DNA from: Gammaproteobacteria bacterium
GTDB lineage: Bacteria; Pseudomonadota; Gammaproteobacteria; Eutrophobiales; Eutrophobiaceae
Length of the DNA stretch: 64,000 bases
Direction: 5' to 3'
Assembly (NCBI GenBank): GCA_965202915.1
Contig: OZ241847.1
Location: 2,194,242-2,258,241 of the forward strand
Made by a program: the position numbers and the translations under genes. Each line of letters begins with the position of its first letter. Position 1 is the first letter of the stretch. The notes below the pieces were generated by a model. That model made no database searches. It was not told the origin of the DNA and was given only the letters and a program-made list of their open reading frames with translations. Below, one piece after another: positions 948 to 16,329 of the stretch.

Positions 948-1076
948 ATTTTCACTTAATCTGTGAATATATCTCACTGATGGCGTTCGCAATGTTTATC
1001 AGGTGGCTTGTTTAGCCTTAAAGCAGGCACAAACCCTTAGCCCACACAACCGCGCGACAGCCTTTATTCCGGGAGA

Positions 1077-1124
1077 AACATTGGCTGAACGCAACATTGG
1101 CTGAACGCAACATTGGCTCACGCC
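1077..1124. repeat. 16-bp direct tandem repeat, about 3 copies (aacattggctgaacgc x2, then the degenerate aacattggctcacgcc)
   Basis: Read directly from lines 1021-1081. It lies in the divergent intergenic region between the aminotransferase start (947) and the GT-C/TPR gene start (1260). Confidence 0.9.
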
Positions 1125-1259
1125 GGCATTTGCCACGCCACCCCCTATGCCTGGCGGCATACATACCGTTGACGCATCACCATGGGGTCATTAAAATATT
1201 CCCGTGTCGCACTACGGACTGGAATCTTCCCTCACACTTAATAATGAGAATCATCAAAA

Positions 1260-3146
1260 GTGAGTAGGCAATCAAATTTCAATGCCAGAAAACGCGGCAA
1301 CAGGAACCGACGCCGGCAAGCCAAATCGCAACCGGTTTCGCCAACAAGCTCAAAGCCATCAGCGACAATATCAGCAAGGGAAAGTATCCATATTACCCCG
1401 GCGCCGCACGGGCCGGAGTCACCCGTCTCCGCCGCGGCACCGGAAGCCGCCATCGCAACCGTATTCGCGCTGCCGGCACTATGCCTGTTAATCACCCTCA
1501 GTTACCTGCCCGCAACCTGGGCGGGGTTGGTGTGGGACGACGTCGTACTGACGATGGCCCAACCGTTGCAACATCTGTCCGGCCTATGGGATATCTGGTT
1601 CGCGCCCCGTTCCCTTTCCCAGTTTGAGGGACACTACTGGCCGCTTCTCTATACGTCTTTCTGGCTGGAGAATCGATTGTGGGGCGTCACCCCGGTCGGC
1701 TATCATATTGTCAACCTTGTACTACATGGCTTGGTCACAGTACTGCTATGGCGCCTGTTACTAAGGCTGGCCGTTCCCGGTGCCTGGTTTGCGGCGGCGG
1801 TGTTCGCGGTACATCCCCTGCACGTGGAGTCCGTGGCATGGATCATCGGACGCAAGGACGTGCTGGCCTCACTGTTTTATCTGGCCTGCGTGCTGAGTTA
1901 CCTGCATTTCATCGAGGCCCGGCGGCGCCGGTTTTATGCCGCGGCACTGGCACTGTTCATGGCGGGTCTGTTGTGCAAATCCATCCTGGTCACGCTGCCC
2001 GTATCGCTACTGATCTGGCACTGGTGGCAACAGGGGCGCGTGACGCCGGCCGACGTGCGCAGAGTGCTGCCGTTCCTGCTGCTGGGGCTGTGCGTCACGA
2101 TCGCCGACGTCTTGTTCTACAAGAGCAGGGATCCCACCGCCTTTGACTATTCAATCGTTGAACGGCTACTGATCGCGGCGCAGGCATTGTGGTTCTACCT
2201 GGGAAAACTGGTCTGGCCGACGCAACTGGCGGTCATTTACCCGCGCTGGGAGGTCGGCGTCGCCAACCCGCTGGCCTGGGGGTGTTTGATGGCCGCCTTC
2301 GCTGCGGTGGCGGCGCTGTGGTTCGGGCGCCACCGCATCGGTCGGGGGCCGCTGGCGGGTGCACTGTTCTTCGTGGTGACGCTGTCGCCGACGCTGGGCT
2401 TCGTGGACTATGGCTACATGCTGTACTCCTTTGTCGCCGACCGCTACCAATACTTGGCCGGGGCCGGTGTGATTGCAACACTGGCCGCAGCCGTAACCCT
2501 GGGCATGGGCAGACTGCCGGGCGCATACCGGCGCGGAGCGCAGGGCATGGCGGTGCTGCCGCTGGCCGCACTGGGCGTCATCACCTGGAACCAGGCGGGA
2601 ATCTACCGGGACAACTACACTTTTTACAGCCACGTCCTCTCTCTCAACCCGCAGGCCCGCTTCGCCCACCACAGTATCGGCCTGGAGTATCAAAAGCAGG
2701 GCCGCCACGAAGAGGCACTTGCCGCTTTTGAAACCGACTATCGTCTTGCCCCGGAGCAGCCGTCCCCACGGGTGCGCATGAGCAAGGCCCAGACCAGCAT
2801 CGGAACGTCGCTTGCGGCACTGGGCCGGATCCAGGAAGCGGAGGAGCACTTCCGGCGCGGGGTTGAGATCGCCCCGGACTTTCCGGGGGCCTACGATCAT
2901 CTGGGCGGGTTCCTGATCACGCACAAGCGTTACCGGGAGGCCCTCGAAGTTTTTCAAGCCGTCATCACCATAACGCCCGGCAATGCAAGGTTTCACGTCG
3001 GCCTGGGGGTCTCGCAGGCGGGCTTGGGACGGCTGGATGAGGCCTTGCAGAGCTACGAGCGGGCGCTGTTGATAGACCCCTTGCAGGAGCAGGCGCTAAG
3101 CAATCGCGCCAGCCTGTTGAAGTTCAGAGAGAGTGGCGGCGGATAG
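1260..3146 (+). CDS. Polytopic GT-C-fold glycosyltransferase-like protein (TMTC/PMT_2-like) with C-terminal TPR repeats; paralogue of 9789-11648
   Basis: 628-aa ORF with a GTG start. It has multiple hydrophobic segments and a first-loop LVWDD acidic motif. GHYWPLLYTSFWLE...GYHIVNLVLHG and AVHPLHVESVAWIIGRKD are also present. The C-terminal ~170 aa shows TPR-like periodicity (EALAAFE, EAEEHFRRGVEIAPDF, EALEVFQAVI, EALQSYERALLIDP). The region is GC-rich with third codon positions mostly G/C. Confidence 0.75.
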   Translation: MSRQSNFNARKRGNRNRRRQAKSQPVSPTSSKPSATISARESIHITPAPHGPESPVSAAAPEAAIATVFALPALCLLITLSYLPATWAGLVWDDVVLTMAQPLQHLSGLWDIWFAPRSLSQFEGHYWPLLYTSFWLENRLWGVTPVGYHIVNLVLHGLVTVLLWRLLLRLAVPGAWFAAAVFAVHPLHVESVAWIIGRKDVLASLFYLACVLSYLHFIEARRRRFYAAALALFMAGLLCKSILVTLPVSLLIWHWWQQGRVTPADVRRVLPFLLLGLCVTIADVLFYKSRDPTAFDYSIVERLLIAAQALWFYLGKLVWPTQLAVIYPRWEVGVANPLAWGCLMAAFAAVAALWFGRHRIGRGPLAGALFFVVTLSPTLGFVDYGYMLYSFVADRYQYLAGAGVIATLAAAVTLGMGRLPGAYRRGAQGMAVLPLAALGVITWNQAGIYRDNYTFYSHVLSLNPQARFAHHSIGLEYQKQGRHEEALAAFETDYRLAPEQPSPRVRMSKAQTSIGTSLAALGRIQEAEEHFRRGVEIAPDFPGAYDHLGGFLITHKRYREALEVFQAVITITPGNARFHVGLGVSQAGLGRLDEALQSYERALLIDPLQEQALSNRASLLKFRESGGG

Positions 3147-3391
3147 TGCTAAAGGGCTCAAGATAAATATATTCTGCGCGGCAAAGCGGGAACATCGGCC
3201 AATAACACCGAGGAAAGGCATCACACACCACAACCAGATCGTGGCCATTCACGCCGACCAAGAGCGAATGAACCGGCAGGTACTCACACCCCACCTCAAA
3301 AGACCAGTTGTCATTGAACGACATATTCAAGATTCCGATCTTACGATTCGGATGGTTTCGGTGATAATGGTGGGCAGGGGGGCAGGGTCAC

Positions 3392-3841
3392 TCATATTCT
3401 CTTTTGTGGCTTCTCCAGCATTTTTCCAAGCTGATTCAGTTTTCTGTTAAGAAGTTGCCCGTCTTTTAGCTGACATTCCCATATCCGCAATACTTTCCAT
3501 CCGTTGTTTTTAAGCGTCTTGTTTACCAGCCTGTCACGTTTCTTGTTGGCATATATTTTTTTAACCCAAAAATCTCTGTTGTTTTGGGGAACTTGGCCGT
3601 GCTTTGGGCAATCATGCCAGAAACATCCATCCATAAAGATCGCAAGCTTACTGTTTGGAAATACAATGTCTGGCTTGCCGAAAATCGGGTATCTGCGTCG
3701 CCATCCTATCACATGATTTCGCTTCAATATTTTAAGCAGTTTCCCTTCGGTTGATTTGTTTCCAGTAGAACGCACCTTACCCATAATCCATGAACGTTTT
3801 TCTTTTGAATAGACGTCAACCATTTTTCTTGACGTTGTCAA
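3392..3841 (-). CDS. vsr: Very-short-patch repair endonuclease Vsr
   Basis: 149-aa ORF containing GKPDIVFPNSKLAIFMDGCFWHDCPKHG, NRDFWVKKIYANKKRD and GWKVLRIWECQL. Its start overlaps the 3' end of the upstream ORF by 26 nt (3816-3841). Confidence 0.9.
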   Translation of the reverse strand: MTTSRKMVDVYSKEKRSWIMGKVRSTGNKSTEGKLLKILKRNHVIGWRRRYPIFGKPDIVFPNSKLAIFMDGCFWHDCPKHGQVPQNNRDFWVKKIYANKKRDRLVNKTLKNNGWKVLRIWECQLKDGQLLNRKLNQLGKMLEKPQKRI

Positions 3842-5477
3842 GCCTAAACAATAAAAATGAAATTAGACTTAGAATATCAAGGCAACTATTTTCTGGAAAT
3901 AATATATTTGATGTTGTCCTAGGTTCATGGTGCGTTGGATTTCTGAATGCTTGCACCAAACCAACTGAAAGAAATTGTTGACCCCTTTGCATGTTAAGTT
4001 CTGTGTCGTCGGAAAGGTCTGAAATTTGAAGTATTGGAAGCCTGGTTATTGTTGTTCTCCCTCTCTCGTTGTGTGATTCAAAACTAAAAGATTTATGCAT
4101 CAAATCAGTAGATGAATAATTAACACCAGCCTTATCTCTAATTTCCCTTTCATAAATCACCACTCCCTCTTTTGCAGCATCCAGATATCGGGCATTTTTA
4201 TAATCTTCGTACAGTCGATCCCTGATAAGCTGATGCAAATTTCTCCAATGATAATAAGGGTAAGAAGGTATAAGTTTTTTAAACTCGACAAACAGCCGAT
4301 TTGATTCAATAGTTTCTATTTCAGGAAAATCTTCAATCAGTTTTTCAGTAATAACCTCAATACTATTCTGAATTTCCTCCGGCATAGAATTTTTCCAGTC
4401 TTCCAGACCAATATCGCCAAGGCTGTTATCAACCTCGGCTATTTTCTTTTCTTTACGCTTTCTACGCCAATCCAATTGAACGAACTGGACACATTTCTCA
4501 AGATATGTATGAAGTTTGCTAGTTTGTAAATACCCCCAGTTTAGGTTTTGTCTGTTAGTGGAAATTACGTCCTCTGAAAAATCTTCTATAAAATCCACTT
4601 CCAACCATCCCGTCATATAAGAAAAGAAATGACTGGACGTGCTATCAGAAAATTGATAAGGAGATTGCACGAGTTTCCCCCGCGAAAACAAAGAAATACC
4701 CCTTGAATCAAATCTTGGTGCAATGGGCTTTTCAGGCGTAATGATCTTTCCCTGAATCTCAGACCGGTGCTCATAATCTGATTCTATGTTTGAAAAATCC
4801 TCGGGGAAATTCCAAGAAAATTCTTCACCAAATGCGGAGAAGTGCATATCATTGGACAACATTACCGGGTCTTCATCGTTACGCCTTACGGTAACGGAAA
4901 AATCTTCATCGAAAATAAAAAACCTTGCTATGCTGTTGGCAAGAAATTTTTCCGAAAAATCAGATTCTCTATTGATGTTTGTAAGTATTATTTGAGTTCC
5001 GGATTGACCATCTTCAACAATTTTGTCAATTACTTGCGGGATCATTAAATATTTCCCTCTCGTGGAGTTCATTAAATCATCCCAATCCATCGTAAAAATA
5101 TTTCTTTTTCCCTGTTGAACAGTGTTTACGGTAATTGTCCGAACAATCCCAAAGAATGAAAGCTTGCCCAAACCCTTTTTACCGATAACCTTCCTACCTC
5201 TCGGAGTCAACTCTTCTCCATCTTCTCTGCGGTTTCTCCCAATAACAAGAAATTTCTTGTCAATATCATTAAAAGACATTCCTGTTCCATTGTCCGTTAC
5301 AATAATTTCTTTTTCATTAATATCATTCAACTGCACTTCCACTTTTGTGGCATCTGCATCATATGCGTTGGCTAGCAGCTCACTTAAAACCGGAGGAAGA
5401 GTTGAGTACATACGAACTCCAAGGTGCTCTATAACTCTTGGGTCAAACTTCATCGTCAATTGATTAGATTCCAGCAT
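3816..5477 (-). CDS. GHKL (HATPase_c_3/MORC-like) ATPase with a C-terminal TIGR02391 (Hypoth_Ymh)-like domain
   Basis: 553-aa ORF with Bergerat-fold motifs: N-box SELLANAYDA, G1 VTDNGTGM, G2 GKKGLGKLSFFG. The C-terminal ~120 aa (YLDAAKEGVVIYEREIRDKAG...DLMHKSF...QRGQQFLSVGLVQAFRNPTHHEP...LSLISFLLFRLD) matches my recollection of the TIGR02391 pattern. It includes an R-x4-H motif (RNPTHH). Confidence 0.75.
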   Translation of the reverse strand: MLESNQLTMKFDPRVIEHLGVRMYSTLPPVLSELLANAYDADATKVEVQLNDINEKEIIVTDNGTGMSFNDIDKKFLVIGRNRREDGEELTPRGRKVIGKKGLGKLSFFGIVRTITVNTVQQGKRNIFTMDWDDLMNSTRGKYLMIPQVIDKIVEDGQSGTQIILTNINRESDFSEKFLANSIARFFIFDEDFSVTVRRNDEDPVMLSNDMHFSAFGEEFSWNFPEDFSNIESDYEHRSEIQGKIITPEKPIAPRFDSRGISLFSRGKLVQSPYQFSDSTSSHFFSYMTGWLEVDFIEDFSEDVISTNRQNLNWGYLQTSKLHTYLEKCVQFVQLDWRRKRKEKKIAEVDNSLGDIGLEDWKNSMPEEIQNSIEVITEKLIEDFPEIETIESNRLFVEFKKLIPSYPYYHWRNLHQLIRDRLYEDYKNARYLDAAKEGVVIYEREIRDKAGVNYSSTDLMHKSFSFESHNERGRTTITRLPILQISDLSDDTELNMQRGQQFLSVGLVQAFRNPTHHEPRTTSNILFPENSCLDILSLISFLLFRLDNVKKNG

Positions 5478-5489
5478 AATAAAACTATC

Positions 5490-6530
5490 TCAGCCCGAGT
5501 AAAAAGATTTCGCTATTCTGTAAGCAAGTTGCGGTGGCACTGCATTGCCTATTAGCTTGGCTGCGATCATTGAACTTTCACACGCAAAAACATAGTCTTC
5601 GCTGAACGTTTGTAGTGTTGCACCTTCTCTTAGGGACAATCCTCTGTTCTCCTCGGGATGGGCAAATCGACCATTTGAAATCCCGTTAAATCTCGTTGTA
5701 ATTGTTGAAGAGGGTTTATCCCACCTCAATCTCCCATAAACATCCCGAAAAGAATTATCTTTGCCTTTGTAGGTGTTCAATTGAAGCTCGGGGTCGTCTT
5801 TCCATGCGCTCCTTGTCCCGCCGTCTTTGGGTGTTAGCTTGAGCCGTCTCAAATTTTTTTCGGATAACGATGAAACTGTATCCATGAAATTATTTTCATC
5901 CTTATAACCGGATTGCAGAACGGGAAATCCATTATGGGTCCCTATAAATTCCTTCAATACGGATTCTTTCTCCGGTTGGGGAAGATCAATCGATTTTTTT
6001 ACCCTGGAAGCAATCAAGATAAATCTCTTTCTGCTTTGCGGAACTCCATAATACTTGGCATTGATAATATCCTCGACAATCTTATATTCTTTTTCAAGTT
6101 TCCGACAAAATTTGTCAAGCCCACTTTCCGCTTTGTTTCTTTTTATTCCCGGAACATTTTCTATAATTACATAACCCGGTTTGTAGTAACAGACAAAGCG
6201 CCAAAAATGATCAAGCAGTCCTCTGGTGTTCTCCGATGATCTTTTGTTCGTATTCAGGGTGGTCCAGTGCTGGCATGGGCTGCACCCTATAAAGATCAAA
6301 GAGTCGTCATTGCGTTTAATCCCACAATTTTTTTCCAGAAAAGTTCGTGGTGTGTCTTCTATATCTTTTAGAAAAAATTTTGTCCCCGGATGATTTGCCT
6401 CATATGTCTCTTTACAATCCTCATCCACATCTATCCCGGCAACAACCTTTACTCCGGCCATCTTTAACCCTTGGGACATGCCGCCGGCACCGCAAAAAAA
6501 ATCAACCGCTCTTAAGGATTTTTTTCTCAT
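5490..6530 (-). CDS. dcm: DNA (cytosine-5)-methyltransferase
   Basis: 346-aa ORF with the canonical m5C-MTase motifs. These are I DFFCGAGGMSQG, IV GCSPCQHW, VI IIENVPG, VIII QSRKRFILIA and X GNAVPPQLA. Its start overlaps the stop of the upstream ORF (ATGA, 6527-6530). Confidence 0.95.
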   Translation of the reverse strand: MRKKSLRAVDFFCGAGGMSQGLKMAGVKVVAGIDVDEDCKETYEANHPGTKFFLKDIEDTPRTFLEKNCGIKRNDDSLIFIGCSPCQHWTTLNTNKRSSENTRGLLDHFWRFVCYYKPGYVIIENVPGIKRNKAESGLDKFCRKLEKEYKIVEDIINAKYYGVPQSRKRFILIASRVKKSIDLPQPEKESVLKEFIGTHNGFPVLQSGYKDENNFMDTVSSLSEKNLRRLKLTPKDGGTRSAWKDDPELQLNTYKGKDNSFRDVYGRLRWDKPSSTITTRFNGISNGRFAHPEENRGLSLREGATLQTFSEDYVFACESSMIAAKLIGNAVPPQLAYRIAKSFYSG

Positions 6531-8872
6531 TCGCCACCGCCCAAACTGGCTATTAATGTTACTATATGTGCCGCAACCGCGGACGAGGCAGCACGCACGA
6601 CAGAATCTTCGTCATATTCCTCCCGGCCATCGGAATTATCTTCGGAGTCACTGACAAGTCTCTTATACATTGCTAATGTGAGAATGCCCACCCCCACCCT
6701 GAAGCGGTGCCTGATGATCTCTCTCTTACCCTCATCTGATTCTTTGGAAATTAAGTACAAGAGATATTTATTGGCTTTGTTCACATATATGGTTAGCGTT
6801 TCTCCTCTGGACACATGACCGCCCGACTCTTCATTGTAGTTATGTTCATCCCAATATTCTTGCTCCACCCACTCAATATTCGGAAATTCCCGAGCCGGTC
6901 TCTCTTGATTGTTTGTGTCTGTTTCATCCCCGGGCGGGTTTCTTTGAGTTTCTTCCGCACTGGCAATTTTGATCATTACGTCAAAAGTCAGAGGATCTGT
7001 TCTTTCCGGGTTTGAGTCATCAAAGCCAAACTGAACGGCAATTTCATCTCCTACTTTTGCCCCCGCGGGAGTTATGACTTTTATTCGGAATTTTCCATTA
7101 CGCAGAGAACCCGAATGTGGCAATATATCAGGTGATGGGTGAATAAACTCCCCTCGGTTGGCATCTCTTATCAAATAATCATTTTGAGCGTCTGTTCTAC
7201 ATTCAATTCGTCTGTAAGAATTTATGGGAACACTCTTAACATTGCCCTCCTCCAAGTGCGTGGGAGTTAAATATGTGGGGAACAATTTCCCTTCATATTG
7301 ATCCTCACCTCCGGATGTTGCAATCTGACTGTCAACAATACTTCCAACATCAAATAGTTCTTGAAGATCCGGATTATCTTTAACAAGATTGGAAAGAAAT
7401 TCTTTATCGGTCTGCTCTTCTATTTGCTCGCTAATACGACGGTTTTTTATTTCTCTTGCATATTCCCTAAGTTCTCCGCTCCCGGCCAAGGCATCTATAA
7501 TAATTTTCTTTAGTTCTCTCGTGAGCCCTATGTCCGCCATTCTTTCCCTGTCCGATTTAAACACGGCGGCTCGCGCCGTATTATCCATGGCATTACAATC
7601 TATTTGAACAATTAAATGGTTTCTCAAATCATCCAGTCGCGCCTTCCGCAACAGACTGGCTCTGTCCGCAGATTGGGACTGACCGTTGATCGTGTAGAAC
7701 ATTCTGTATGGCTGTTTGCGCAAATAATCCTTCATTTTCTTCAACCCAAAATAAGATATTCGGATAGTCCCCAAATCCGAATTTTCAGAATTTTCAATTA
7801 CGTTTTCCAAGTCAACTTCGCTTTCCTCACTTCTTTCATCATCGGATTTGAGCACTATATTCATACCGGAAAAAGTTCTCGGTGCAATACCCTCCGCTCT
7901 AAGACCGCTCCTTGTGGGTTGAGCATCAAAATCATAAAGACGAACAGGCAAGGCACAATTTATAAGGTTGGTCGTAAGCGCATCATATAGTCCTATATCA
8001 ACCGCACGGGCACGAGGCCCTATATCGTATTCATATAACTTCACAATGCTGCCACCATTGATGACGACACCGATATCCTCTCTGCCAAAAGCCTTGATTT
8101 CATCGGTTTCAAAACAGGCAATTTCTCCGTCGGGACAAAAATACTCAACCACTGGCAAATCCTCTCCTTCTCGAACTCCTCTTACCCTTATCAAAGTCCA
8201 TCCCCATAGACCATCCGAACCGTAAGTGGTTCTTTTGGACAGAATAAACTTATACATCCCCGCCCTGATATCTGCTCGGGTACAAAAAGGTATGGATCCG
8301 GTGCTACCCATATTAAATCGACCTTGGACAAACGGAATGCCTTCCTTATTCTTTTCTCCAAGAGATAAAAAAGTTTTTCCAAAATCTGTATGATTTTGCC
8401 CCTCACCAAAATCAACTATCGTATAGTTTGGACAAATATCATTTCTCCTTCCTGTTCTCTTAATACCAATCAAAACACTTTTTTCAGCCAGATCAGTCCT
8501 TTGATTCGGGCTTAACAAAGCCAACCTGCCTTCTTGAACTTTGGGGAAAAAGTGTTTGACAGCCTCGCTCATATCTTGGGGAGCTGATTCACCATAAAAA
8601 TCTATTTGCTCTTCCTTTGCCCTGCGCATAAGGATTGCGTCAATGGAATTAATGATTAACTCTGCCAACGCACCGACTGGTTGGCTCGTTTGGACGCTCA
8701 CCCTGTCCCAATTTTTATCCGCGCCGCCGTAAGGCTTCCAATTTTCATCAGCGCTAAATTCAGGCTGGCTTTCCATGAACCGATTAACGTCGTCGGCTGA
8801 CAAAGCACCGAGAAACTTATTCGCTATTAACTTTGAAAGTGGGCTGTTGAAAAATTTTCTCGAATCATTCAT
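6527..8872 (-). CDS. Large uncharacterised protein with a divergent N-terminal GHKL/Bergerat ATPase-like region
   Basis: 781-aa ORF and the first gene of the AT-rich operon. Candidate motifs are N-box LAELIINSIDA, G1 IVDFGEGQ and G2 QGRFNMGSTGS (about aa 68-200). I recognise no motifs in the remaining ~550 aa, which end in an acidic tail (SDSEDNSDGREEYDED). Confidence 0.6.
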   Translation of the reverse strand: MNDSRKFFNSPLSKLIANKFLGALSADDVNRFMESQPEFSADENWKPYGGADKNWDRVSVQTSQPVGALAELIINSIDAILMRRAKEEQIDFYGESAPQDMSEAVKHFFPKVQEGRLALLSPNQRTDLAEKSVLIGIKRTGRRNDICPNYTIVDFGEGQNHTDFGKTFLSLGEKNKEGIPFVQGRFNMGSTGSIPFCTRADIRAGMYKFILSKRTTYGSDGLWGWTLIRVRGVREGEDLPVVEYFCPDGEIACFETDEIKAFGREDIGVVINGGSIVKLYEYDIGPRARAVDIGLYDALTTNLINCALPVRLYDFDAQPTRSGLRAEGIAPRTFSGMNIVLKSDDERSEESEVDLENVIENSENSDLGTIRISYFGLKKMKDYLRKQPYRMFYTINGQSQSADRASLLRKARLDDLRNHLIVQIDCNAMDNTARAAVFKSDRERMADIGLTRELKKIIIDALAGSGELREYAREIKNRRISEQIEEQTDKEFLSNLVKDNPDLQELFDVGSIVDSQIATSGGEDQYEGKLFPTYLTPTHLEEGNVKSVPINSYRRIECRTDAQNDYLIRDANRGEFIHPSPDILPHSGSLRNGKFRIKVITPAGAKVGDEIAVQFGFDDSNPERTDPLTFDVMIKIASAEETQRNPPGDETDTNNQERPAREFPNIEWVEQEYWDEHNYNEESGGHVSRGETLTIYVNKANKYLLYLISKESDEGKREIIRHRFRVGVGILTLAMYKRLVSDSEDNSDGREEYDEDSVVRAASSAVAAHIVTLIASLGGGE

Positions 8873-8924
8873 TTATGAAAATTCACCTAGGTTTTGGTAT
8901 TTAATCAGTACATATCCATAACCG

Positions 8925-9300
8925 TTAAAAATCATTCCCGGAACCAAATGGCCACCCACTTGCGGAATAGGCCCGGATGTCATCATCGCCGGCATATTTG
9001 AACCAAAAAACCGCCGCCGGCACAACCGAACATTTGCCAAGCCGGCAGTTTTCCACCACCACCTTGAGCATGGCGTATTCGCCGTTGACTTGGCAGGCGA
9101 AAGCCAGCATATCGAATGCTACTTGATACGCCAAATGATGTCGAGTTTAATATATCCAGTTTGACCATTACGCATGTCGGTGATGTCGAGATCTTCACGC
9201 AGTGCTTTATCGCCATTGGTTAGGACCATTTTGTAACTGTATTTGTCGCCGCCCGCTAGAATCGCCGGACATACGGACTCCCCGAACCAAGAATGATAAC
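8925..9300 (-). pseudogene. hemB: Decayed C-terminal relic of porphobilinogen synthase (hemB-like)
   Basis: Minus-strand fragments lie in different frames, broken by stops. Compared with E. coli HemB from memory: ...ALREDLDIT..DMRNGQTGYIKLDIIWRIK resembles [29 protein letters not shown]. ...LAFACQVNGEYAMLKVVVEN...FWFKYAGDDDIRAYSA resembles [20 protein letters not shown]...GSIKRAGADLIFSYFA. Confidence 0.55.
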
Positions 9301-9788
9301 ATTAGCTCCCTCTACAATCCAGGTATTTCCCAACGCCTGTCCTTCCAGAACACCTATCGACCAAACCATCGGTTACTGACAGAACAACATCTACGGACGT
9401 GGCGACAGCGGTAATTGGGTTATCATGGAATCATCCGATTCACACCATCTCCAGAATATACGGGCGGCAGCATCGGACACTTCCTTGGGTATGTGTGCTA
9501 CCCGCACCTCCAATTAACACGGCCGAGTTGAGAATGTGAACCAAGTATTTCGTTGGTAATTACCCCACATCCTTCGACTTATCAGGTAATGAGACAAGAC
9601 TCGGCAAGGTTACGGGACTTCCCCGGTCACCGTCTGTGCACAATCTTATAATGCTTTTCTGCGAAAATTATGAGGATTGTGTAAAATCCTCTCTTGTATA
9701 GGATTAGGATACCCTCTTGCCACACTTCAGACTGAAATCTGCCTTCTCCTCAAGAAAGGAGTGGCGCAAGGTGAACAGATAATCGGAT

Positions 9789-11648
9789 ATGGCGGCCCGA
9801 AAAAACCGAAACAAGGCCCGGCGCAGGCAAATGAAGCTGCAAACCACCGCCAGGCGCCCCGGCACGGTGCGTAGCCGGACCGGCCCCGTACCCATCAAAT
9901 CGTCGCCGGGCGGGTTGCAATCGCTTTTTTCCGGGCTCAAGCGGAGCGTACTTCACGGGGACCCGATCCCACCCGCACTCGCGGCCACGGCGCTGTGGCT
10001 GCTGATACTCATCAGTTACCTGCCCGCGACCTGGGCCGGTTTCGTGTGGGACGACTTCGCGTTCACGGAGGCCGAACAGGTACTGCGCCCATCCGGTCTT
10101 TGGGATATCTGGTTCAAGCCGCACTCGCTGCAGAATGAAGGCCATTACTGGCCGCTCCTCTATACGACCTTCTGGCTGGAGCACAAGTTGTGGGGGCTGG
10201 ACCCGACCGGTTATCATATCGTCAACCTGCTGCTGCACGGGTTGACCACGCTGTTGTTGTGGCGCCTGCTGCTGCGGCTGGCCGTGCCGGGCGCCTGGTT
10301 CGCGGCGGCGGTGTTCGCCGTGCACCCCCTGCACGTGGAGTCGGTGGCATGGGTTATCGGACGCAAGGACGTGCTGGCGGGGCTGTTCTCCGTGGCCTGC
10401 GTGCTGAGCTATCTGCGTTTCGTGGAAGCTGGTCGCCGCGCACGCTATACGCACTACTTTCGGGCACTGGCGCTGTTCGTGGCGGGACTGTTGAGCAAAT
10501 CCATTGTCGTCACCCTGCCGGTGTCGCTGTTGATCTGGCACTGGTGGAAGCAGGGTCGCGTAGCCGTGACCGACGCACTGAGGACGCTGCCGTTCCTGCT
10601 GCTGGGGCTCGGCATCACGATCATCGACTGGTGGTACTACAAGGACCGGGAAGAGATTGTCCTGGAGGACTACTCGTTGATCGAGCAGACGCTGAACGCG
10701 GCGCACGCGCTGTGGTTCTACGTTGGCAAACTGGTCTGGCCGGCGGAACTGGCAGTCATCTACCCGCGCTGGGAAATCAACGTCAGCGAGCCACTGGCCT
10801 GGGCGTATCTGGTCACCGCCGTCGCGGTGGTGTGGCTGCTGTGGTTCTACCGCGACCGCATTGGCCGGGGGCCGCTGGCGGGGGTGCTGTTCTTCGTGGT
10901 GACGCTATCACCGACCCTGGGGTTCGTCGAGTACGGTTTCATGCAGTTCTCGCTGGTCGCCGACCGCTATCAGTACCTGGCCGGGATCGGAGTGACGGCG
11001 GGCCTCGTGGCCGCCGCGGCCCGCGTTGCAGGCCGGCTGTCGGGTACGCCGGCGAGGGGCGTACAGGCCGCGGCGGTGCTGCTGCTGGTCGTGCTGGGAA
11101 CCATCAGTTGGAACCAGGCGGGCATCTACCGCGACAACTTCACGTTCTACCAGCATATCATCGCTCTCAACCCGCAGGCCAGGAACGCCTGGTACAACCT
11201 TGGCAGAGAGTATTCCATGCAGGGCCGCACGCAGGATGCGCTGGCCGCGTATCTCACCGCCGGCGAGCAGCGCCCCGACCACGTCTGGGCGCATATCGGC
11301 GCCGGGCAGATGGCCGCGGAACTGGGAAGGCTCGCCGAGGCGGAGATGTACCTGCAACGCGCGCTTGCGGTTGACCCGAGTTTCCCGGAAGCCCTCAACA
11401 ATATGGGAGCGCTGCGGCTCAGACAAAAACGCTACAGCGAGGCGCTCGAACTCTTTGAGACCCTGATTGAGATGCAGCCCGAGTACGCCAAGGTTTATTC
11501 TGGCATAGGCGTGGCCCTGGCCGGACTCAGGCGGTTTGAAGAGGCGTTGCGGAGTTTTGACCGCGCGCTTGAACTGGACCCGTCACTGGAAGAGGCGCGG
11601 GTCAACCGCGAGCACGTATTGCGGAACTCCAAAAGCGAGAGCAGGTAA
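9789..11648 (+). CDS. Polytopic GT-C-fold glycosyltransferase-like protein (TMTC/PMT_2-like) with C-terminal TPR repeats; paralogue of 1260-3146
   Basis: 619-aa ORF that is colinear with the 628-aa protein. Shared blocks include ISYLPATWAGFVWDD, GHYWPLLYTTFWLE, LLWRLLLRLAVPGAWFAAAVFAVHPLHVESVAW, RIGRGPLAG.LFFVVTLSPTLGFV and WNQAGIYRDN. The TPR tail is more divergent. Its stop overlaps the next start (TAATG at 11646-11650). Confidence 0.8.
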   Translation: MAARKNRNKARRRQMKLQTTARRPGTVRSRTGPVPIKSSPGGLQSLFSGLKRSVLHGDPIPPALAATALWLLILISYLPATWAGFVWDDFAFTEAEQVLRPSGLWDIWFKPHSLQNEGHYWPLLYTTFWLEHKLWGLDPTGYHIVNLLLHGLTTLLLWRLLLRLAVPGAWFAAAVFAVHPLHVESVAWVIGRKDVLAGLFSVACVLSYLRFVEAGRRARYTHYFRALALFVAGLLSKSIVVTLPVSLLIWHWWKQGRVAVTDALRTLPFLLLGLGITIIDWWYYKDREEIVLEDYSLIEQTLNAAHALWFYVGKLVWPAELAVIYPRWEINVSEPLAWAYLVTAVAVVWLLWFYRDRIGRGPLAGVLFFVVTLSPTLGFVEYGFMQFSLVADRYQYLAGIGVTAGLVAAAARVAGRLSGTPARGVQAAAVLLLVVLGTISWNQAGIYRDNFTFYQHIIALNPQARNAWYNLGREYSMQGRTQDALAAYLTAGEQRPDHVWAHIGAGQMAAELGRLAEAEMYLQRALAVDPSFPEALNNMGALRLRQKRYSEALELFETLIEMQPEYAKVYSGIGVALAGLRRFEEALRSFDRALELDPSLEEARVNREHVLRNSKSESR

Positions 11649-13414
11649 TGGCGAAACGGAAAAACCCCCGCCCCGCCACTCGCCGGCGCCGACAACCTGG
11701 GGCAGCGGCGCCGACAACGGCAACGATGCCCTGGCGGTGGCGCGCGGGCGACGCCTTATTTGCCGCCGACCGCCCGCGGCTCGCCGGCGACGGCGAACAC
11801 TGGACGTATTTCTGGCCGCTGCTGGGCGCGGCCCTGCTGCTGCGCGCTGCCATCGCCCTGTGGGGTGACTTTGTGCTGCATCCGGACGAGATCATGCAAT
11901 ACCTGGAGCCGGCCCACTATGTGGCCTTCGGCAATGGCGTCCTCTACTGGGAATATCTCCACGGCGCACGCAGCTGGCTGATCCCGGGCGCGATCGCCGG
12001 CGTGCTGAAGGCGCTGGATGGCTTGGGGCTGGCGCAGCCGGCCATCTATATCGCCGTGGTGAAACTGTTGTTCTGCCTGCTGTCGCTGTCGGTGCCGTGG
12101 GCCATGTACCGCTTCACGCAAATCACGGTCAACGAGCGATCTGCTCGGCTGGCGCTGATCTTCGGCTGCTTCTGGTACGAACTGGCGGCGCTGGCGCACA
12201 AACCCTTCACCGAATTGTTCAGCACTTCCATTTTCATGGTCGTGCTCGCTCTGTCCGTGGGCAGGGAAGCGGAAAGACCCGCCAGGCTGTTTGCCATCGG
12301 CCTGCTGGCGGCACTCAGCGGTGCGGTGCGCCTGCAGTACGCACCCGTGGCGTTGCTGCTGTTGTTGCTGCGCTCGGTATCCCTGCGCAACGGCGTTGCC
12401 GGGCTGGTGTCGTTATGGGCGGGCGCCGGGCTGCTGACGCTGCTAGTGGGTATCTTCGAATGGCAGACCTGGGGGGCGCCGTTTCATTCCTACCTGAGCA
12501 ACTTCTTTATCAATCTCGCCATTGACCCCGCACGCGCCGGTGAATCAAGCCGATGGCTTCTGTTGGGGCAGTTGGCCGCGGCCAGCGGCGGCATGGCACT
12601 GATCGCCTTTGCCGCTGCGCTGCCCAGGGGGCGGCGGCATCTGCTCATCCTGGTGACGAGCGCGGTGATACTCGTCCTGCACCTGCTCCCGGAGCATCGC
12701 GAATACCGCTTCATCCACGTCCTGATCCCGTGCTGGTTGATGCTGCTGGCGGCCTGGATCGCGCGCTGGGGCGACGGATTGTCCGGCGAACGAGGCCGGA
12801 TATCCGCACTGGCGCGGCGCTGGGGCGCGGCGGCGGTGCTGGCCTTCGGCATCCCAGCCCTACTCAATGCGTTTCCCTGGCAGAGCCGGGTGTACCAGAG
12901 TTTCTCCGTGGAAAAACCGGTGTACTACTTGCGCAATCAGGACCCGATATTTGAGATCATGTCTTTCCTGGCCGCCCAGGACGACGTGCACGGAGCTCTC
13001 TACCATACCCGGGAATACAACGCATACTTCAGCACTGGCGGCTATTACTACCTGCACCACGACGTCCCTTTCTATACCGCGCAAGACACCTGGCAAACCA
13101 TCAGGGAACGGCACCCGGCGGTGCCTCAGGAATCGTTGGTTTCCCATATCGTGACCGAGGCCGACGGCCCCGCCATCCAGGGGTTCGAACGACTGCTCCG
13201 GCGTGGAAACCTGGCGCTGTGGCGGCGCCGGGACAACGACAGTGCAGTCCCCCGCTGGCGCGAGCACGTGATCAAGGTAAGCCATGCGGACCTAAACGAC
13301 CTGGTGAGCAGAACCATGCGGCGCCTGAACGCCTCTTCCATGCTCGACCTTTTCGTAGCCGATGACTTGTACTGGGTGGAGGCGCCACCGTTGTTTGAGT
13401 CGGCGGATGAATAA
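11648..13414 (+). CDS. GT-C mannosyltransferase-like membrane protein (GT22 / PIG-B-ALG9-like)
   Basis: 588-aa polytopic ORF. Its first-loop motif LHPDEIMQYLEPAHYVAFGNGVLYWEYLHGARSWLIPG matches the PDE..Q.LE.AH...FG.G.LTWE...G.RS pattern of Dol-P-Man-dependent GT22 enzymes. It is translationally coupled to the upstream gene. Confidence 0.65.
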   Translation: MAKRKNPRPATRRRRQPGAAAPTTATMPWRWRAGDALFAADRPRLAGDGEHWTYFWPLLGAALLLRAAIALWGDFVLHPDEIMQYLEPAHYVAFGNGVLYWEYLHGARSWLIPGAIAGVLKALDGLGLAQPAIYIAVVKLLFCLLSLSVPWAMYRFTQITVNERSARLALIFGCFWYELAALAHKPFTELFSTSIFMVVLALSVGREAERPARLFAIGLLAALSGAVRLQYAPVALLLLLLRSVSLRNGVAGLVSLWAGAGLLTLLVGIFEWQTWGAPFHSYLSNFFINLAIDPARAGESSRWLLLGQLAAASGGMALIAFAAALPRGRRHLLILVTSAVILVLHLLPEHREYRFIHVLIPCWLMLLAAWIARWGDGLSGERGRISALARRWGAAAVLAFGIPALLNAFPWQSRVYQSFSVEKPVYYLRNQDPIFEIMSFLAAQDDVHGALYHTREYNAYFSTGGYYYLHHDVPFYTAQDTWQTIRERHPAVPQESLVSHIVTEADGPAIQGFERLLRRGNLALWRRRDNDSAVPRWREHVIKVSHADLNDLVSRTMRRLNASSMLDLFVADDLYWVEAPPLFESADE

Positions 13415-13654
13415 AAGTTTGTGGTCACGATCTTACACGGGCAGCCCGATGCCGATACCGTTCGCAGGTGTGGCCCACCGGGCCAGGTGGTCGGCGATGC
13501 TTTCCGACCCCATGGAGCCCCGCGCGGCCCCGGAATAGTCTTCGCAACCGCTCATTGGTTTGCCGGCGACAATATGGCACACTCTCCGGCAGTTTGATTG
13601 TAATGTTGATCCTGTCTTTTGATTTGCTTTTTCATTGCTTTAGGAGGCCCGCCC

Positions 13655-14404
13655 ATGTCCAAAAACCTAAGCGACTTTTCAACCCTGAGCCTGGACTGCT
13701 ATGGCACACTCATTGACTGGGAGACTGGCATTTGGGACGCGCTACAGCCCCTGATCCGGCGATCCGGACGAGACGACGTCGTGCGCCGCCAAGGACTCGA
13801 GGCGTTCGCCCGATTTGAAAATGCCCGCGAAATGGAGACACCGGAGCTGCCCTACCCGGAGATTTTGCAACGAACCCACGCCGACGTGGCGGCCTACCTG
13901 GGAATGACCACCTCGGTGGAACTGGACCGCGAGTTTGCCTGCTCCATCGCCCACTGGCCGGCCTTTGCCGACACCGCCGACGCGCTGCGCCGCCTGCGGA
14001 AGCACTATAAACTGGTGATCCTGTCCAACGTCGACCGGGCCGGATTCGCCGCCTCGGCGACCAAGCTCGGCGTCGCCTTTGACGCCGCCTACACAGCGGA
14101 AGATATCCGCTCCTATAAACCCGCCGCCGCCAACTTCCACTACCTGATCGAACATCTCCAGGCCGATCTCGGCGTTAAGCGCGAAGCCATCCTGCACACC
14201 GCCCAGAGCCTGTTCCACGACCACGCACCGGCCAACGCCTTCGACCTCGCCAACGTCTGGATCGACCGCCAGGGGCTGTCGCATAGCGACAACTGGGGCG
14301 CCACCGCCAGGCTCGACAAGCGCCCCGACGTGGACTTCCTGTTCCCGACCCTGGCGGCGATGGCGGACGCAGTGGAAGGGGAGGTCGAGCCGCCCCAGGG
14401 TTGA
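13655..14404 (+). CDS. HAD-superfamily hydrolase, haloacid dehalogenase type II-like
   Basis: An internal ATG of the 261-aa ORF is preceded by AGGAGG. Motifs are LSLDCYGTLIDWE (DxYGT nucleophile motif), ILSNVD, SYKP and the C-terminal DH/D region. Confidence 0.75.
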   Translation: MSKNLSDFSTLSLDCYGTLIDWETGIWDALQPLIRRSGRDDVVRRQGLEAFARFENAREMETPELPYPEILQRTHADVAAYLGMTTSVELDREFACSIAHWPAFADTADALRRLRKHYKLVILSNVDRAGFAASATKLGVAFDAAYTAEDIRSYKPAAANFHYLIEHLQADLGVKREAILHTAQSLFHDHAPANAFDLANVWIDRQGLSHSDNWGATARLDKRPDVDFLFPTLAAMADAVEGEVEPPQG

Positions 14405-14712
14405 AAGCGGTCATGCACTGTACCAGTTAAGGATATAAATCCAGTGGTGGGTCTGGTACCTGGCGTCGTTCCTGATTCCGCACTGATGGCGGGGCGGGGA
14501 GCAAGTGCACAGCAGGGGCCAGGACTGAACACTTCGGCAGTGGGTGCTGCCTGGCGTCTTGCTGGTTGTACAAACGCGCCGGTGCCACGTTGCTGGCGGT
14601 GCTGCTTCCCACCAATTGCGCCGCCGGGACATTTTTAATGAACTATGTCCACAAAAAATTCACTTGTCCGAGCGAAAGCTTTGTAGTGCCCGCCCTGGTG
14701 CGCGAGATTCAC

Positions 14713-15643
14713 TTACCCGTTCGCCATTGTGGAGACGGTCGTGTATCTGCGCGCGAGTGCCGCACGAGAGACACGGTGTTCGTCGACCAGTGGCGGGATT
14801 CCCCGATGTTGCCGTATTACTTGAGCGGTCAACTCATTTTCTGCTGCGGCCTGGGACACTACACCAGACTGCCCGGTGACCTTGTATAGGGTGATATCCT
14901 CGCGCACTTGCTCCAACAGATAGAATTCCATCCGGGCATGGTTGAAAGCGAAGCGATCTCCTGACCGGTTGTTGAACACCAGCTTGGAGAGCGCAATGTT
15001 GACGACTACCAGCGCGGCCAAAATTGTCAGTATCCAGTGATTAGACAGCCCTAGCCTGCAAACCACGGCAAACCCCTTGAGATGGGTCGGATTTCGACCC
15101 TGTGCGTAAACCAGCGTCAGCAGCAGAATCAAAAGAAAAAGCAGCACGTGTAAGGAATACACCTTCTGGATAATGGACTGCGACCAGAATAGCTTGGAAA
15201 ACCCGTAGGCGAAGCCGGCCATGTAGCCGCCGAGGCGGCCGCCCGTCAGGTGGACCGCCACCAGATATAGCACCGCGCAGGCCGCCGCGCCCAAAAGGGC
15301 GCTCAATATGTTGCCGGCCAGCGGGCGCGAAAGCAACGGCAGGTGGGCGAACGGGAAGCACAACATGCTGTACAGCGGGTAACCCGGCGGGTGCACTGGT
15401 TGGCCGTAGTGGCAAATCAGGTTGAAGATCGCTGCGTCTTCGTAGGTGACGACACGGGGCATCGTGGCCAGATATACGATAAAAAGCCCGGTAAACACGG
15501 CCAGAGGGGGGGCAGCCCTGTCCTTCGATGTTATCGCGTAATGAAAACAAGCTAACCGTAGCGGCGTTGCGCACCCTGTCTTGGGACTGGGGGCGCACCT
15601 TACCCGAACGGGTACGGTTTTTTCTTTTACTCTTTCTGCGCAT
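14713..15643 (-). pseudogene. DUF2723/TMEM260-like GT-C membrane protein, reading frame broken at a C7 homopolymer (pseudogene, phase variant or sequencing error)
   Basis: The 261-aa ORF (14713-15498) carries YEDAAIFNLICHYGQPVHPPGYPLYSML, the DUF2723 first-loop signature. Its frame stays open upstream (..KDRAAPPLAVFTG..). A basic N-terminus MRRKSKRKNRTRSGKVRPQSQ...EGQGCPP lies in another frame, starting at 15643. Removing one C from the C7 run joins the two frames. Confidence 0.6.
15506..15512. repeat. Homopolymeric G7 (C7 on the coding strand) tract at the frameshift point of the DUF2723-like gene
   Basis: Read directly from line 15481 (ccagaggggg ggcagccc). Confidence 0.9.
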
Positions 15644-15656
15644 GGTGCCTACCCAA

Positions 15657-15956
15657 CTACAGTCCCTTTTTGGCAAATACTATCACGTCTGATGCTGTAC
15701 CCGCTCGAATCGGCTCGCCTGAACGGGAGGGCGGAATGATTGTAATGTCGACTATGATGTCGCGTGTTTCATCCGGGCGGTTTTGTTGAATCTCGTCTTT
15801 TATGATTTGTATGTCCAGCCGGATCAACGGTTTATTCAGGTCAAAGATTTTCGCCAATTGGTAGCAAACGTCGCCGTCAAAGAATAAATCTTTGCGGTCT
15901 GTCTCAACCTCATATTGGGGGTTATAATGGTCTTGAGTTCGTTTTGCTTGGCACAA
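15657..15956 (-). CDS. Hypothetical protein (99 aa, TTG start), ending 13 nt upstream of the DUF2723-like gene start
   Basis: Supported only by the ORF and its operon-like spacing. I recognise no motif in it. Confidence 0.3.
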   Translation of the reverse strand: MCQAKRTQDHYNPQYEVETDRKDLFFDGDVCYQLAKIFDLNKPLIRLDIQIIKDEIQQNRPDETRDIIVDITIIPPSRSGEPIRAGTASDVIVFAKKGL

Positions 15957-16039
15957 TCGTAATATTTACTCAGTAGTGGACCAATCCACCGCTGTTTTTT
16001 CTTTGATAATACTCTGCACTTTTTTGATTGGATATAGCG

Positions 16040-16215
16040 AGTTCAAGGATGTGTTTGACTCACTGCTAAAAGACAACCCTATCTTCCACATGTCCCGACA
16101 AGCGGCCCTATTCAACCAAAAACTGGCTGACACGTCCCCGCATCGGGGTTGGCTACCCAAATACAACGCCATCCGACCTCATAAAGGAGTTGGACTCAAA
16201 ACACCCGTATGGATT
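16040..16215 (+). mobile_element. Transposase C-terminal remnant (rve/DDE integrase-core tail, IS3/IS481-like)
   Basis: The 96-aa ORF contains ...GWLPKYNAIRPHKGVGLKTPVW. This matches the W..YN..RPH..LG.KTP tail typical of DDE transposases. No catalytic core or terminal inverted repeats were seen. Confidence 0.45.
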
Positions 16216-16329
16216 ACTATCGATAACAACAAAATTTATACAATATGTGGTGGACCCCATACATAGAGTAGTAGAAATATCGCTATGTGGGAGTATATAT
16301 GCAGATAAGGCATAGGGAGTTTCCTAATA

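Follow-up and report, generated by a model that had tools for sequence, protein, structure and literature searches.

An imported, partly eroded island of GT-C glycosyltransferase genes in a gammaproteobacterial genome, putatively part of a mobile periplasmic glycosylation system

The 64-kb stretch of the gammaproteobacterial contig OZ241847.1 analysed here (hereafter, the window) carries an island of high-GC DNA, spanning about 1200-3200 and 9600-15650, that encodes membrane glycosyltransferases of the GT-C class. Two genes encode enzymes that end in a tetratricopeptide repeat (TPR) domain, denoted paralogs A and B, and a third encodes an enzyme of the GT22 family; these three are intact. Two other GT-C genes, one TMEM260-like and one PMT-type, persist as remnants. 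The features are listed in Table 1. Horizontal acquisition of the island is well supported. On balance, we judge it to be probably part of a mobile periplasmic system dependent on polyprenyl-phosphate-mannose, in which the TPR-bearing enzymes would initiate glycosylation on proteins and the GT22 enzyme would elongate the product.

Table 1 Features of the island and of the insertion that divides it, with positions in the window.
Feature	Position	Strand	Basis
PMT_2-type GT-C enzyme with C-terminal TPR domain, paralog A, 628 residues	1260-3146	+	Open reading frame (ORF) and translation, Pfam TPR families
Low-GC (36-49%) insertion splitting the tandem of TPR-bearing GT-C genes; context, outside the glycosylation system	3147-9788	-	GC profile, Pfam, NCBIfam and PADLOC
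Vsr	3392-3841	-	Pfam, NCBIfam and PADLOC
GHKL-ATPase type II restriction enzyme of the BbrUII/HgiDII family, HEPN-like C-terminus	3816-5477	-	
C5 DNA methyltransferase	5490-6530	-	
781-residue protein; gene overlaps the methyltransferase gene by 4 bp	6527-8872	-	
PMT_2-type GT-C enzyme with C-terminal TPR domain, paralog B, 619 residues, TMTC-like architecture and motifs	9789-11648	+	
GT22 (ALG9/ALG12/PIG-B-like) GT-C glycosyltransferase, 588 residues	11648-13414	+	Pfam Glyco_transf_22
HAD-superfamily hydrolase of the type II haloacid-dehalogenase type; high-GC passenger	13619-14404	+	Pfam Hydrolase
PMT/PMT_2-type GT-C remnant without TPR domain, pseudogene fragment	14533-14886	+	tblastn with L002 and L006 proteins
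TMEM260-like (DUF2723) GT-C remnant; 261-residue ORF at 14713-15498	14713-15639	-	Sequence, Pfam and tblastn
Short ORF, possible insertion sequence (IS) remnant, right edge of the island	15976-16266	+	Weak rve_3 match

A first-pass annotation of this DNA had described a horizontally acquired toolkit of three GT-C families, and much of its description could be reproduced. The ORF positions that it gave for paralog B, the GT22 enzyme, the HAD hydrolase, the TMEM260-like protein and the second TPR-bearing copy were borne out. The loop motifs that it quoted were all found in the translations (VWDD, HPDEIMQYLEPAH..FGNGVLYWE and HPPGYPLY), as was the coupling of paralog B to the GT22 gene, since the stop codon of the former and the start codon of the latter share one base as TAATG (...AGGTAATGGCG...). 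A public annotation places the start of paralog B 14 codons downstream of the start used here. Profile and fold assignments likewise support the proposed enzyme class, namely GT-C enzymes dependent on polyprenyl-phosphate sugars. As detailed below, the toolkit fails for the window itself.

The predicted GT22 membership is firm, and the earlier PIG-B/ALG9-like assignment holds. The protein matches Pfam Glyco_transf_22 (PF03901) over residues 62-392 with 91.6 bits against a cut-off of 23.8 bits (E=8e-26), and residues H78, P79, D80, E81, E87, P88, H90, W101, E102, Y353, R354 and F355 are invariant in 27 homologs. A PDB search with the single sequence was unsuccessful; a profile of the 27-sequence family was needed, which, run against the whole PDB, found solely chicken ALG12 and human ALG9 (E about 3e-4). 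Both proteins can be aligned with the family in the HPDE...Y.EP.H...G.G..WEY loop and in the H(K/R)E.RF motif, and in a fold comparison the enzyme is nearest to solved GT22 enzymes.

ALG9, ALG12, PIG-B and PIG-Z, the eukaryotic members of the family, use dolichyl-phosphate mannose (Dol-P-Man) as donor and add mannose onto the mannose of lipid-linked glycans; to our knowledge, all characterised GT22 enzymes transfer mannose to a mannose acceptor. The window enzyme has the Pfam domain of the family and, in common with ALG9 and ALG12, the loop and motif described above, but its identity to these two proteins is only 11-12%. Moreover, it features an extra C-terminal alpha/beta domain of about 170 residues (about 400-588) that is conserved and lies outside the Pfam GT22 model. 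Invariant residues of this domain include Y466-Y467, H470, P474 and H500, and a search for structural relatives of the domain gave no clear match. Unlike its eukaryotic counterparts, the enzyme is encoded in a bacterial, operon-like context beside TPR-bearing GT-C enzymes, and its donor would be undecaprenyl- rather than dolichol-based.

Paralogs A and B are 62% identical over 550 residues. Related genome loci compared with the window are denoted by L-numbers (L002, L003 and so on). Paralog A is the ortholog of the first gene of the tandem pair found in relatives. Each paralog is 72% identical to the matching member of the pair in L002 (paralog A to gene a), which indicates that the two genes arrived together.

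TMTC1-4 are eukaryotic protein O-mannosyltransferases of the GT-C class that use Dol-P-Man as donor and have cadherins and protocadherins as clients. The likeness of the window proteins to these enzymes, proposed by the first-pass annotation, stands in part. The GT-C fold is present, with an N-terminal GT-C membrane domain followed by the TPR domain, as are most of the motifs. PMT_2 was matched below its cut-off of 26.1 bits by paralog A (23.4 bits, E=7.6e-5), and a Pfam search with paralog B gave no match to it; the model is matched by the transmembrane domains of 18 of 24 family members (best E=3e-12), which are 55-73% identical to paralog B. DUF1736 (PF08409) was matched by 0 of the 24 transmembrane domains at E<=1 and is carried by 0 of the 120 best homologs. 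In PDB sequence searches, TPR repeats dominated the results for the full-length enzyme, and neither the transmembrane domain alone nor the 24-sequence profile returned anything meaningful.

We compared the seven TMTC motifs M1-M7 (Table 4 of PMC7801869) by eye with the columns that are invariant in the family. Motifs M1 (DD), M3 (RxD) and M7 ((E/D)RxxY) are present and invariant. Motif M2 (SHKSYRP) is partial, reading H-Y-W-P, and M6 is reduced to a single Pro. In M4 (KE(T/Q)xxT), the Lys and Thr are kept and the metal-binding Glu is replaced by Ser; in M5, the Trp is kept and the Asp is absent. The motifs occur in the TMTC order with similar spacing, and the stretch FAVHP(I/L)H is identical to a TMTC3 stretch reported in PMC7801869. 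What the two groups have in common is an N-terminal multi-helix GT-C domain, a TPR domain that would lie on the non-cytoplasmic side and, among the motifs, RxD, (E/D)RxxY, FAVHP(I/L)H, a DD located in the first external loop and two residues of KE(T/Q)xxT, Lys and Thr. In contrast to TMTC1-4, the proteins described here are bacterial, lack the DUF1736 match, the M4 Glu and the M5 Asp, and carry a basic N-terminal tag; their genes form tandem arrays of paralogs and show translational coupling to GT22. They appear TMTC-like in architecture and in most catalytic motifs, and TMTC membership is unproven.

The DUF2723/TMEM260-like gene, claimed as the third member of the cluster, belongs to the proposed family but is not a complete gene. 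Its ORF matches PF11028 with 63.6 bits against a cut-off of 24.2 bits (E=2.7e-17). The start codon and the basic N-terminus at 15639 are out of frame, with a frameshift at a C7 run near 15510. Remnants were measured by tblastn with the full-length relatives of L002 and L006. The window copy keeps about 240 of 747-792 residues, corresponding to about 59-225 (72% identity) and about 427-497; an internal segment of about 200 residues, a further 22 residues and the C-terminal third are lost, and the sequence ends near residue 497. Even if the C7 frameshift were a sequencing error, these internal losses would leave the gene non-functional. Human TMEM260 is a protein O-mannosyltransferase for IPT domains. 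The remnant matches human TMEM260 (PDB 9rql) over residues 33-200 only (E=7.6e-14), a region that includes the HPPGYPL loop; the full-length relatives match residues 15-464 (E=3e-20). The window copy differs from the human protein in being frameshifted and internally deleted, and the bacterial proteins differ from it in carrying the basic tag.

Overlapping this remnant on the other strand is what is left of a PMT-type GT-C gene, overlooked by the first-pass annotation. It covers residues about 400-520 of a protein of 585-591 residues (45-46% identity, E=3e-24), has in-frame stops nearby and is inverted with respect to the arrangement in relatives. In relatives, the complete protein gives matches to both Pfam PMT and Pfam PMT_2. 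In sum, the window copy of the TMEM260-like gene is a pseudogene, and a fourth, PMT-type GT-C gene was once present. The three families first described are present, but not as an intact set: two families are intact in the window and two are dead.

The HAD hydrolase gene lies between the GT-C genes, as described, but it is not conserved as part of the cluster. The protein matches NCBIfam TIGR01428 with 119.8 bits against a cut-off of 125.4 bits, and the gene has a GC content of 60-66%. Homologs were found in 0 of the other loci searched, and the hydrolase was rejected as a pathway member.

The families recur together in other genomes, so that the refuting condition set by the first-pass annotation, a lack of conserved co-occurrence, does not hold. 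We built hidden Markov models (HMMs) from the cluster proteins, ran them against the ORFs of 64 genome loci measuring 20 kb or more and counted a family when it lay within 10 kb of GT22; the counts come from ad hoc HMMs and a crude ORF caller. TPR-bearing GT-C genes accompany GT22 in 38 of the 64 loci (directly adjacent and on the same strand in 25), GT2/GtrA-related genes in 31, PMT-type genes in 22 and PIG-V-like genes in 5. TMEM260-like genes do so in only 8, a further point in which the bacterial family is set apart from human TMEM260. At least one further GT-C family is present in 46 loci and at least two in 22, and the exact trio of TPR-bearing GT-C, GT22 and TMEM260-like genes occurs in 7.

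Some relatives feature full clusters that include a GT2 enzyme fused to a GtrA-type membrane domain (GT2+GtrA_DPMS_TM), namely L002, L005, L006 and L044; the GT2-GtrA gene is found also in L007. For instance, L002, a 2.13-Mb circular metagenome-assembled genome (MAG), carries two TPR-bearing GT-C genes followed by GT22 and, on the other strand, an autotransporter, a TMEM260-like protein (792 residues), a PMT-type protein (585 residues) and GT2+GtrA_DPMS_TM. In L005, five tandem TPR-bearing GT-C genes are followed by GT22, an autotransporter, a PIG-V-like GT-C gene and GT2-GtrA, and L044 has nine glycosyltransferase genes on one strand. The manC gene is located beside or inside the cluster in L003, L007, L008, L060 and L069. 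In the window, tblastn across the 64 kb gave no hit for a GT2-GtrA synthase, a PIG-V-like gene or an autotransporter, in agreement with the earlier statement that it holds no polyprenyl-phosphate mannose synthase.

The autotransporters of L002 (11967-14759, minus strand) and L005 (12055-14826, plus strand) directly follow GT22. The passenger of the L002 protein consists of Thr/Pro-rich Ig-like He_PIG/PKD repeats, which recall the Ig-like domains modified by animal TMTC and TMEM260 enzymes, and by this analogy the two proteins are candidate substrates. Autotransporters follow GT22 in only 3 of the 64 loci and were rejected as a general, conserved partner. Both main families are greatly expanded in a Nitrospirales MAG (OY843588, L061), which carries seven tandem GT22 paralogs at 1120-16190 and, in a genome of 2.99 Mb, at least eight of the closest homologs of the TPR-bearing enzymes.

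The N-terminus of many cluster proteins is a strongly basic peptide that fits the pattern M-x-x-[RK]-K-x-[RK]-x-K-x-R-R-R-Q (for instance, MAARKNRNKARRRQ, MAKRKNPRPATRRRRQ and MRRKSKRKNRTR); a low-complexity linker comes next. The tag is a trait of four GT-C families (TPR-bearing, GT22, TMEM260-like and PIG-V-like), not of the PMT-type or GT2-GtrA proteins. Measured as at least six Lys or Arg residues within 16 residues after a start, it is present in 54-82% of the members of these four families, 8% of the PMT-type proteins, 15% of the GT2-GtrA proteins and 10% of other ORFs. In the window it occurs at the N-termini encoded from 1260, 9789, 11648 and 15639 (the last on the minus strand), and it is seen also in L002, L005, L006, L024, L044 and L068. 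The tag may merely be a pronounced positive-inside signal.

The GT-C genes of the window average 62% GC, against 50% in the remainder. The difference between cluster and flanks, expressed as a fraction, is 0.128, the fourth-largest among 70 loci (median 0.015); in relatives with genomes of about 60-65% GC, the GC content of the cluster is the native one. Near-identical copies occur in unrelated surroundings. L003 (65% GC throughout) and L004 (50% GC), contigs of one metagenome, have in common 3776 bp at 99.92% identity and nothing else. The shared segment, located at 8101-11876 in both, is exactly the pair of TPR-bearing and GT22 genes; the flanks are unrelated, and in L004 fragments of IS66 lie on both sides. 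The same module is found at 8093-11897 in the Pseudohongiella MAG L011 (97.7% identity). Similarly, L002, L006 and L008, assigned by their record titles to Nitrospirales, Ca. Porifericomitaceae and Ca. Poriferihabitaceae, respectively, carry cluster blocks that are 95-98.5% identical within unrelated flanks. The high-GC island in a 50% GC genome and the near-identical modules (95-99.9%) between unrelated flanks thus support the horizontal acquisition first proposed, to which an integrase fragment at the right edge, described below, can be added.

Sharp GC steps at both edges, and families best known from eukaryotes, could also be produced by an assembly chimera or by contamination with host or other eukaryotic DNA. 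We regard this origin of the high-GC segment as extremely improbable. L085, which Logan assembled from a different run, matches the window at 100% identity across 1-6674, left junction included, and L084, an ENA assembly, is 99.08% identical across 1648-14448; the reproduction of the junctions in independent assemblies excludes a chimera. Moreover, the genes have bacterial starts, overlaps and neighbours, and hundreds of bacterial homologs reside on megabase bacterial contigs.

The two TPR-bearing enzymes and the GT22 enzyme are under purifying selection. Relative to L084, the synonymous and nonsynonymous codon differences are 19 and 9 in paralog A, 15 and 7 in paralog B, 17 and 12 in GT22, and 15 and 5 in the HAD gene, which gives a rough ratio of nonsynonymous to synonymous rates (dN/dS) of 0.15-0.22 for the three intact genes and of 0.1-0.22 when the HAD gene is included. 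All three keep every family-invariant residue. Constraint and conservation together argue that the remaining genes are functional, with a donor presumably made elsewhere in the genome.

The island could instead be a non-functional relic that has lost the synthase and two GT-C genes and is on its way to deletion, as would fit the two pseudogene remnants, the absence of a GT2-GtrA gene from the 64 kb, the interruption of the TPR tandem and the state of L084, which already lacks everything to the right of the HAD gene. We consider this unlikely, given the intact invariant residues and the roughly twofold excess of synonymous over nonsynonymous changes relative to a 99%-identical strain. Moreover, the pair of TPR-bearing and GT22 genes also enters other genomes (L004 and L011) by itself. 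Since this minimal module travels without the synthase, its spread suggests that the pair works with donors supplied by the host.

The system that we favour would operate in three steps where the cluster is complete. First, undecaprenyl phosphate would be charged with a hexose by a cytoplasmic GT2 enzyme that carries a fused GtrA/DPMS membrane domain; mannose from GDP-mannose is the probable sugar, favoured by the linkage to manC and by family precedent. The lipid-linked sugar would then reach the periplasmic face of the inner membrane, where several GT-C enzymes would use it. The TPR-bearing PMT_2-type enzymes would initiate on exported proteins, their presumably periplasmic TPR domain holding the client, and the translationally coupled GT22 enzyme would add a second sugar onto the first. 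TMEM260-like, PMT-type and PIG-V-like enzymes would serve other clients or linkages. The window copy is reduced and has no linked synthase, and to be active it would need a synthase from another part of the genome.

The pathway logic proposed here, polyprenyl-phosphate-mannose feeding a PMT-type GT-C enzyme, is that of actinobacterial protein O-mannosylation, in which Ppm1 makes the donor and a PMT/GT39 enzyme acts on exported proteins. Ppm1 is the polyprenyl-phosphate-mannose synthase (PMC3485146). In contrast to the actinobacterial pathway, the clusters described here occur in Gram-negative lineages, the candidate initiator has a TPR domain and no MIR domain, and GT22, TMEM260-like and PIG-V-like enzymes are co-encoded. 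The combination of a GT2 synthase, a GtrA-type flippase and a GT-C transferase is an established bacterial paradigm (PMC11127046). As in these three-component systems (Gtr, ArnC/ArnT), relatives of the island carry a GT2 synthase with a GtrA-type membrane domain beside GT-C enzymes. However, their clusters hold up to nine glycosyltransferase genes of four or five GT-C families (L044), the families are otherwise known from the eukaryotic endoplasmic reticulum (ER), and TPR domains are fused to the transferases. The window, with its three intact GT-C genes, differs further in having neither synthase nor flippase within the 64 kb.

Several observations weigh against this interpretation. Besides the missing DUF1736 match and the altered M4 and M5 motifs, the window lacks a synthase, linkage to manC is limited to 5 loci, a conserved candidate substrate gene was not found across the 64 loci, and the co-occurrence counts are rough. 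The targets of the three-component systems known in bacteria are mostly glycans or lipid A, not proteins, and the sugars that eukaryotic GT22 enzymes extend belong to lipid-linked glycans and are not protein-bound.

In the main rival explanation, which we hold to be possible but not probable, the acceptor is an envelope glycan or lipid (lipopolysaccharide (LPS) core, O-antigen, lipid A, exopolysaccharide or a glycolipid), and the cluster is a multi-enzyme version of a three-component system; the substrate extended by GT22 would be a mannose attached to a lipid or glycan, and docking onto the envelope assembly machinery would be the role of the TPR domain. The characterised bacterial GT2/GtrA/GT-C systems do modify glycans (PMC11127046), eukaryotic GT22 and PIG-V enzymes act on lipid-linked glycans, as evidenced by the titles of the top PDB matches, and a substrate protein gene is not conserved among the 64 loci. 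In contrast, for three of the families the nearest motif relatives, TMTC, TMEM260 and PMT, are without exception protein O-mannosyltransferases; the usual ligands of TPR domains are peptides or proteins; and the inspected clusters had no LPS or O-antigen genes as neighbours. These last points speak against a glycan or lipid acceptor.

The tandem of TPR-bearing genes, adjacent in L002, L006 and L008, is split in the window by a 6.6-kb low-GC restriction-modification (RM) island. The 781-residue protein encoded in it had no match in Pfam, NCBIfam or PADLOC; it is conserved along with the RM island in L084 and may be an uncharacterised RM partner. The three large genes of the RM island show zero differences from L084, and the flanking genes differ by 1.5-1.9%, which suggests that its arrival or exchange was very recent.

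At the right edge of the GT-C island, the GC content drops from about 63% to 39-45%, and the short ORF located there matches the end of an IS-type integrase core (Pfam rve_3) over 20 residues at E=0.005, below the cut-off. Scans for repeats and tRNA genes revealed neither clean direct repeats nor a tRNA target at the island edges, and a scan for promoters and terminators performed no better than on shuffled sequence. In the native low-GC DNA upstream of paralog A, we noted a perfect 16-bp tandem duplication (two copies of AACATTGGCTGAACGC, 1077-1108) and, just upstream of the gene, a good sigma-70-like site (TTGACG-17 nt-TAAAAT, 1169-1197); a host promoter may drive the imported paralog A. L084 diverges completely from the window after 14448, just past the HAD gene. 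Beyond this point (12804 onward in L084), it carries nadB and rpoE-rseAB-degP, and the window, past 14449, features the GT-C remnants, the IS fragment, a low-GC SGNH/GDSL-like gene, hinT and znuBCA. The remaining window is ordinary bacterial chromosome, encoding UvrA, NusA, IF-2, TruB, DnaB, Alr, RadA, SdhA, ZnuABC and DUF1302/DUF1329 proteins. Among named homologs, the NusA protein comes closest to those of uncultured marine Gammaproteobacteria (76-79% identity).

The ecological setting of the family was derived from the record titles of the best 80 genome hits, for which sampling bias is possible. Almost all are MAGs that have sponge-derived names or come from sponge or coral studies, and several MAG name codes presumably refer to sponge studies as well. 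The relatives come from at least eight phyla, and the groups represented are Gammaproteobacteria, Nitrospirota, Latescibacterota, Spirochaetota, Binatia, Thermodesulfobacteriota, Acidobacteriota, Gemmatimonadota, Dadabacteria and others. The ctg..x_c contig names of relatives fit metaMDBG, the assembler reported in Sanger sponge genome notes, one of which places sponge MAGs in Ca. Poriferihabitaceae. Among the 'eukaryotic-like proteins' of sponge Latescibacterota, those with TPR domains form the predominant class (PMC12993501). Given this predominance and the occurrence of the cluster in sponge and coral MAGs, some of the TPR 'eukaryotic-like proteins' of sponge symbionts may be these glycosyltransferases.

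A broader and rather doubtful reading is that sponge and coral symbionts of at least eight phyla share, by exchange, an 'ER-like' mannosylation kit. The kit would comprise TMTC-like, GT22, TMEM260-like, PIG-V-like and PMT-type GT-C enzymes, several of them basic-tagged, along with a GT2-GtrA enzyme resembling DPM synthase, and would act as a symbiosis factor by decorating surface or periplasmic proteins with eukaryote-type O-mannose. If so, it could serve, for instance, to escape recognition and phagocytosis by host cells, would explain some of the excess of TPR 'eukaryotic-like proteins' that has long been noted for sponge symbionts and would bear on the origin of the animal TMTC and TMEM260 pathways.

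TMTC, TMEM260, GT22 and PIG-V enzymes have been studied as machinery of the eukaryotic ER, and the literature consulted mentions bacterial relatives only in passing. We found no prior description of GT-C or mannosyltransferase clusters of sponge symbionts in the literature searched, the coverage of which is incomplete, so that the negative result supports novelty only weakly. The kind of system is already known; the combination of ER-type GT-C families, their mobility and their host range appear to be undescribed in that literature. The first-pass annotation was largely right about horizontal transfer and enzyme class; the function that it assigned is unproven, and its claim for the window was overstated. 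The window itself documents an imported, partly eroded island in which three constrained genes are kept. The compact clusters that include the synthase, and sometimes manC, together with the mobile module of one TPR-bearing and one GT22 gene, offer a tractable bacterial model for these enzymes, and the link to sponges provides a concrete hypothesis on surface glycosylation in symbiosis.

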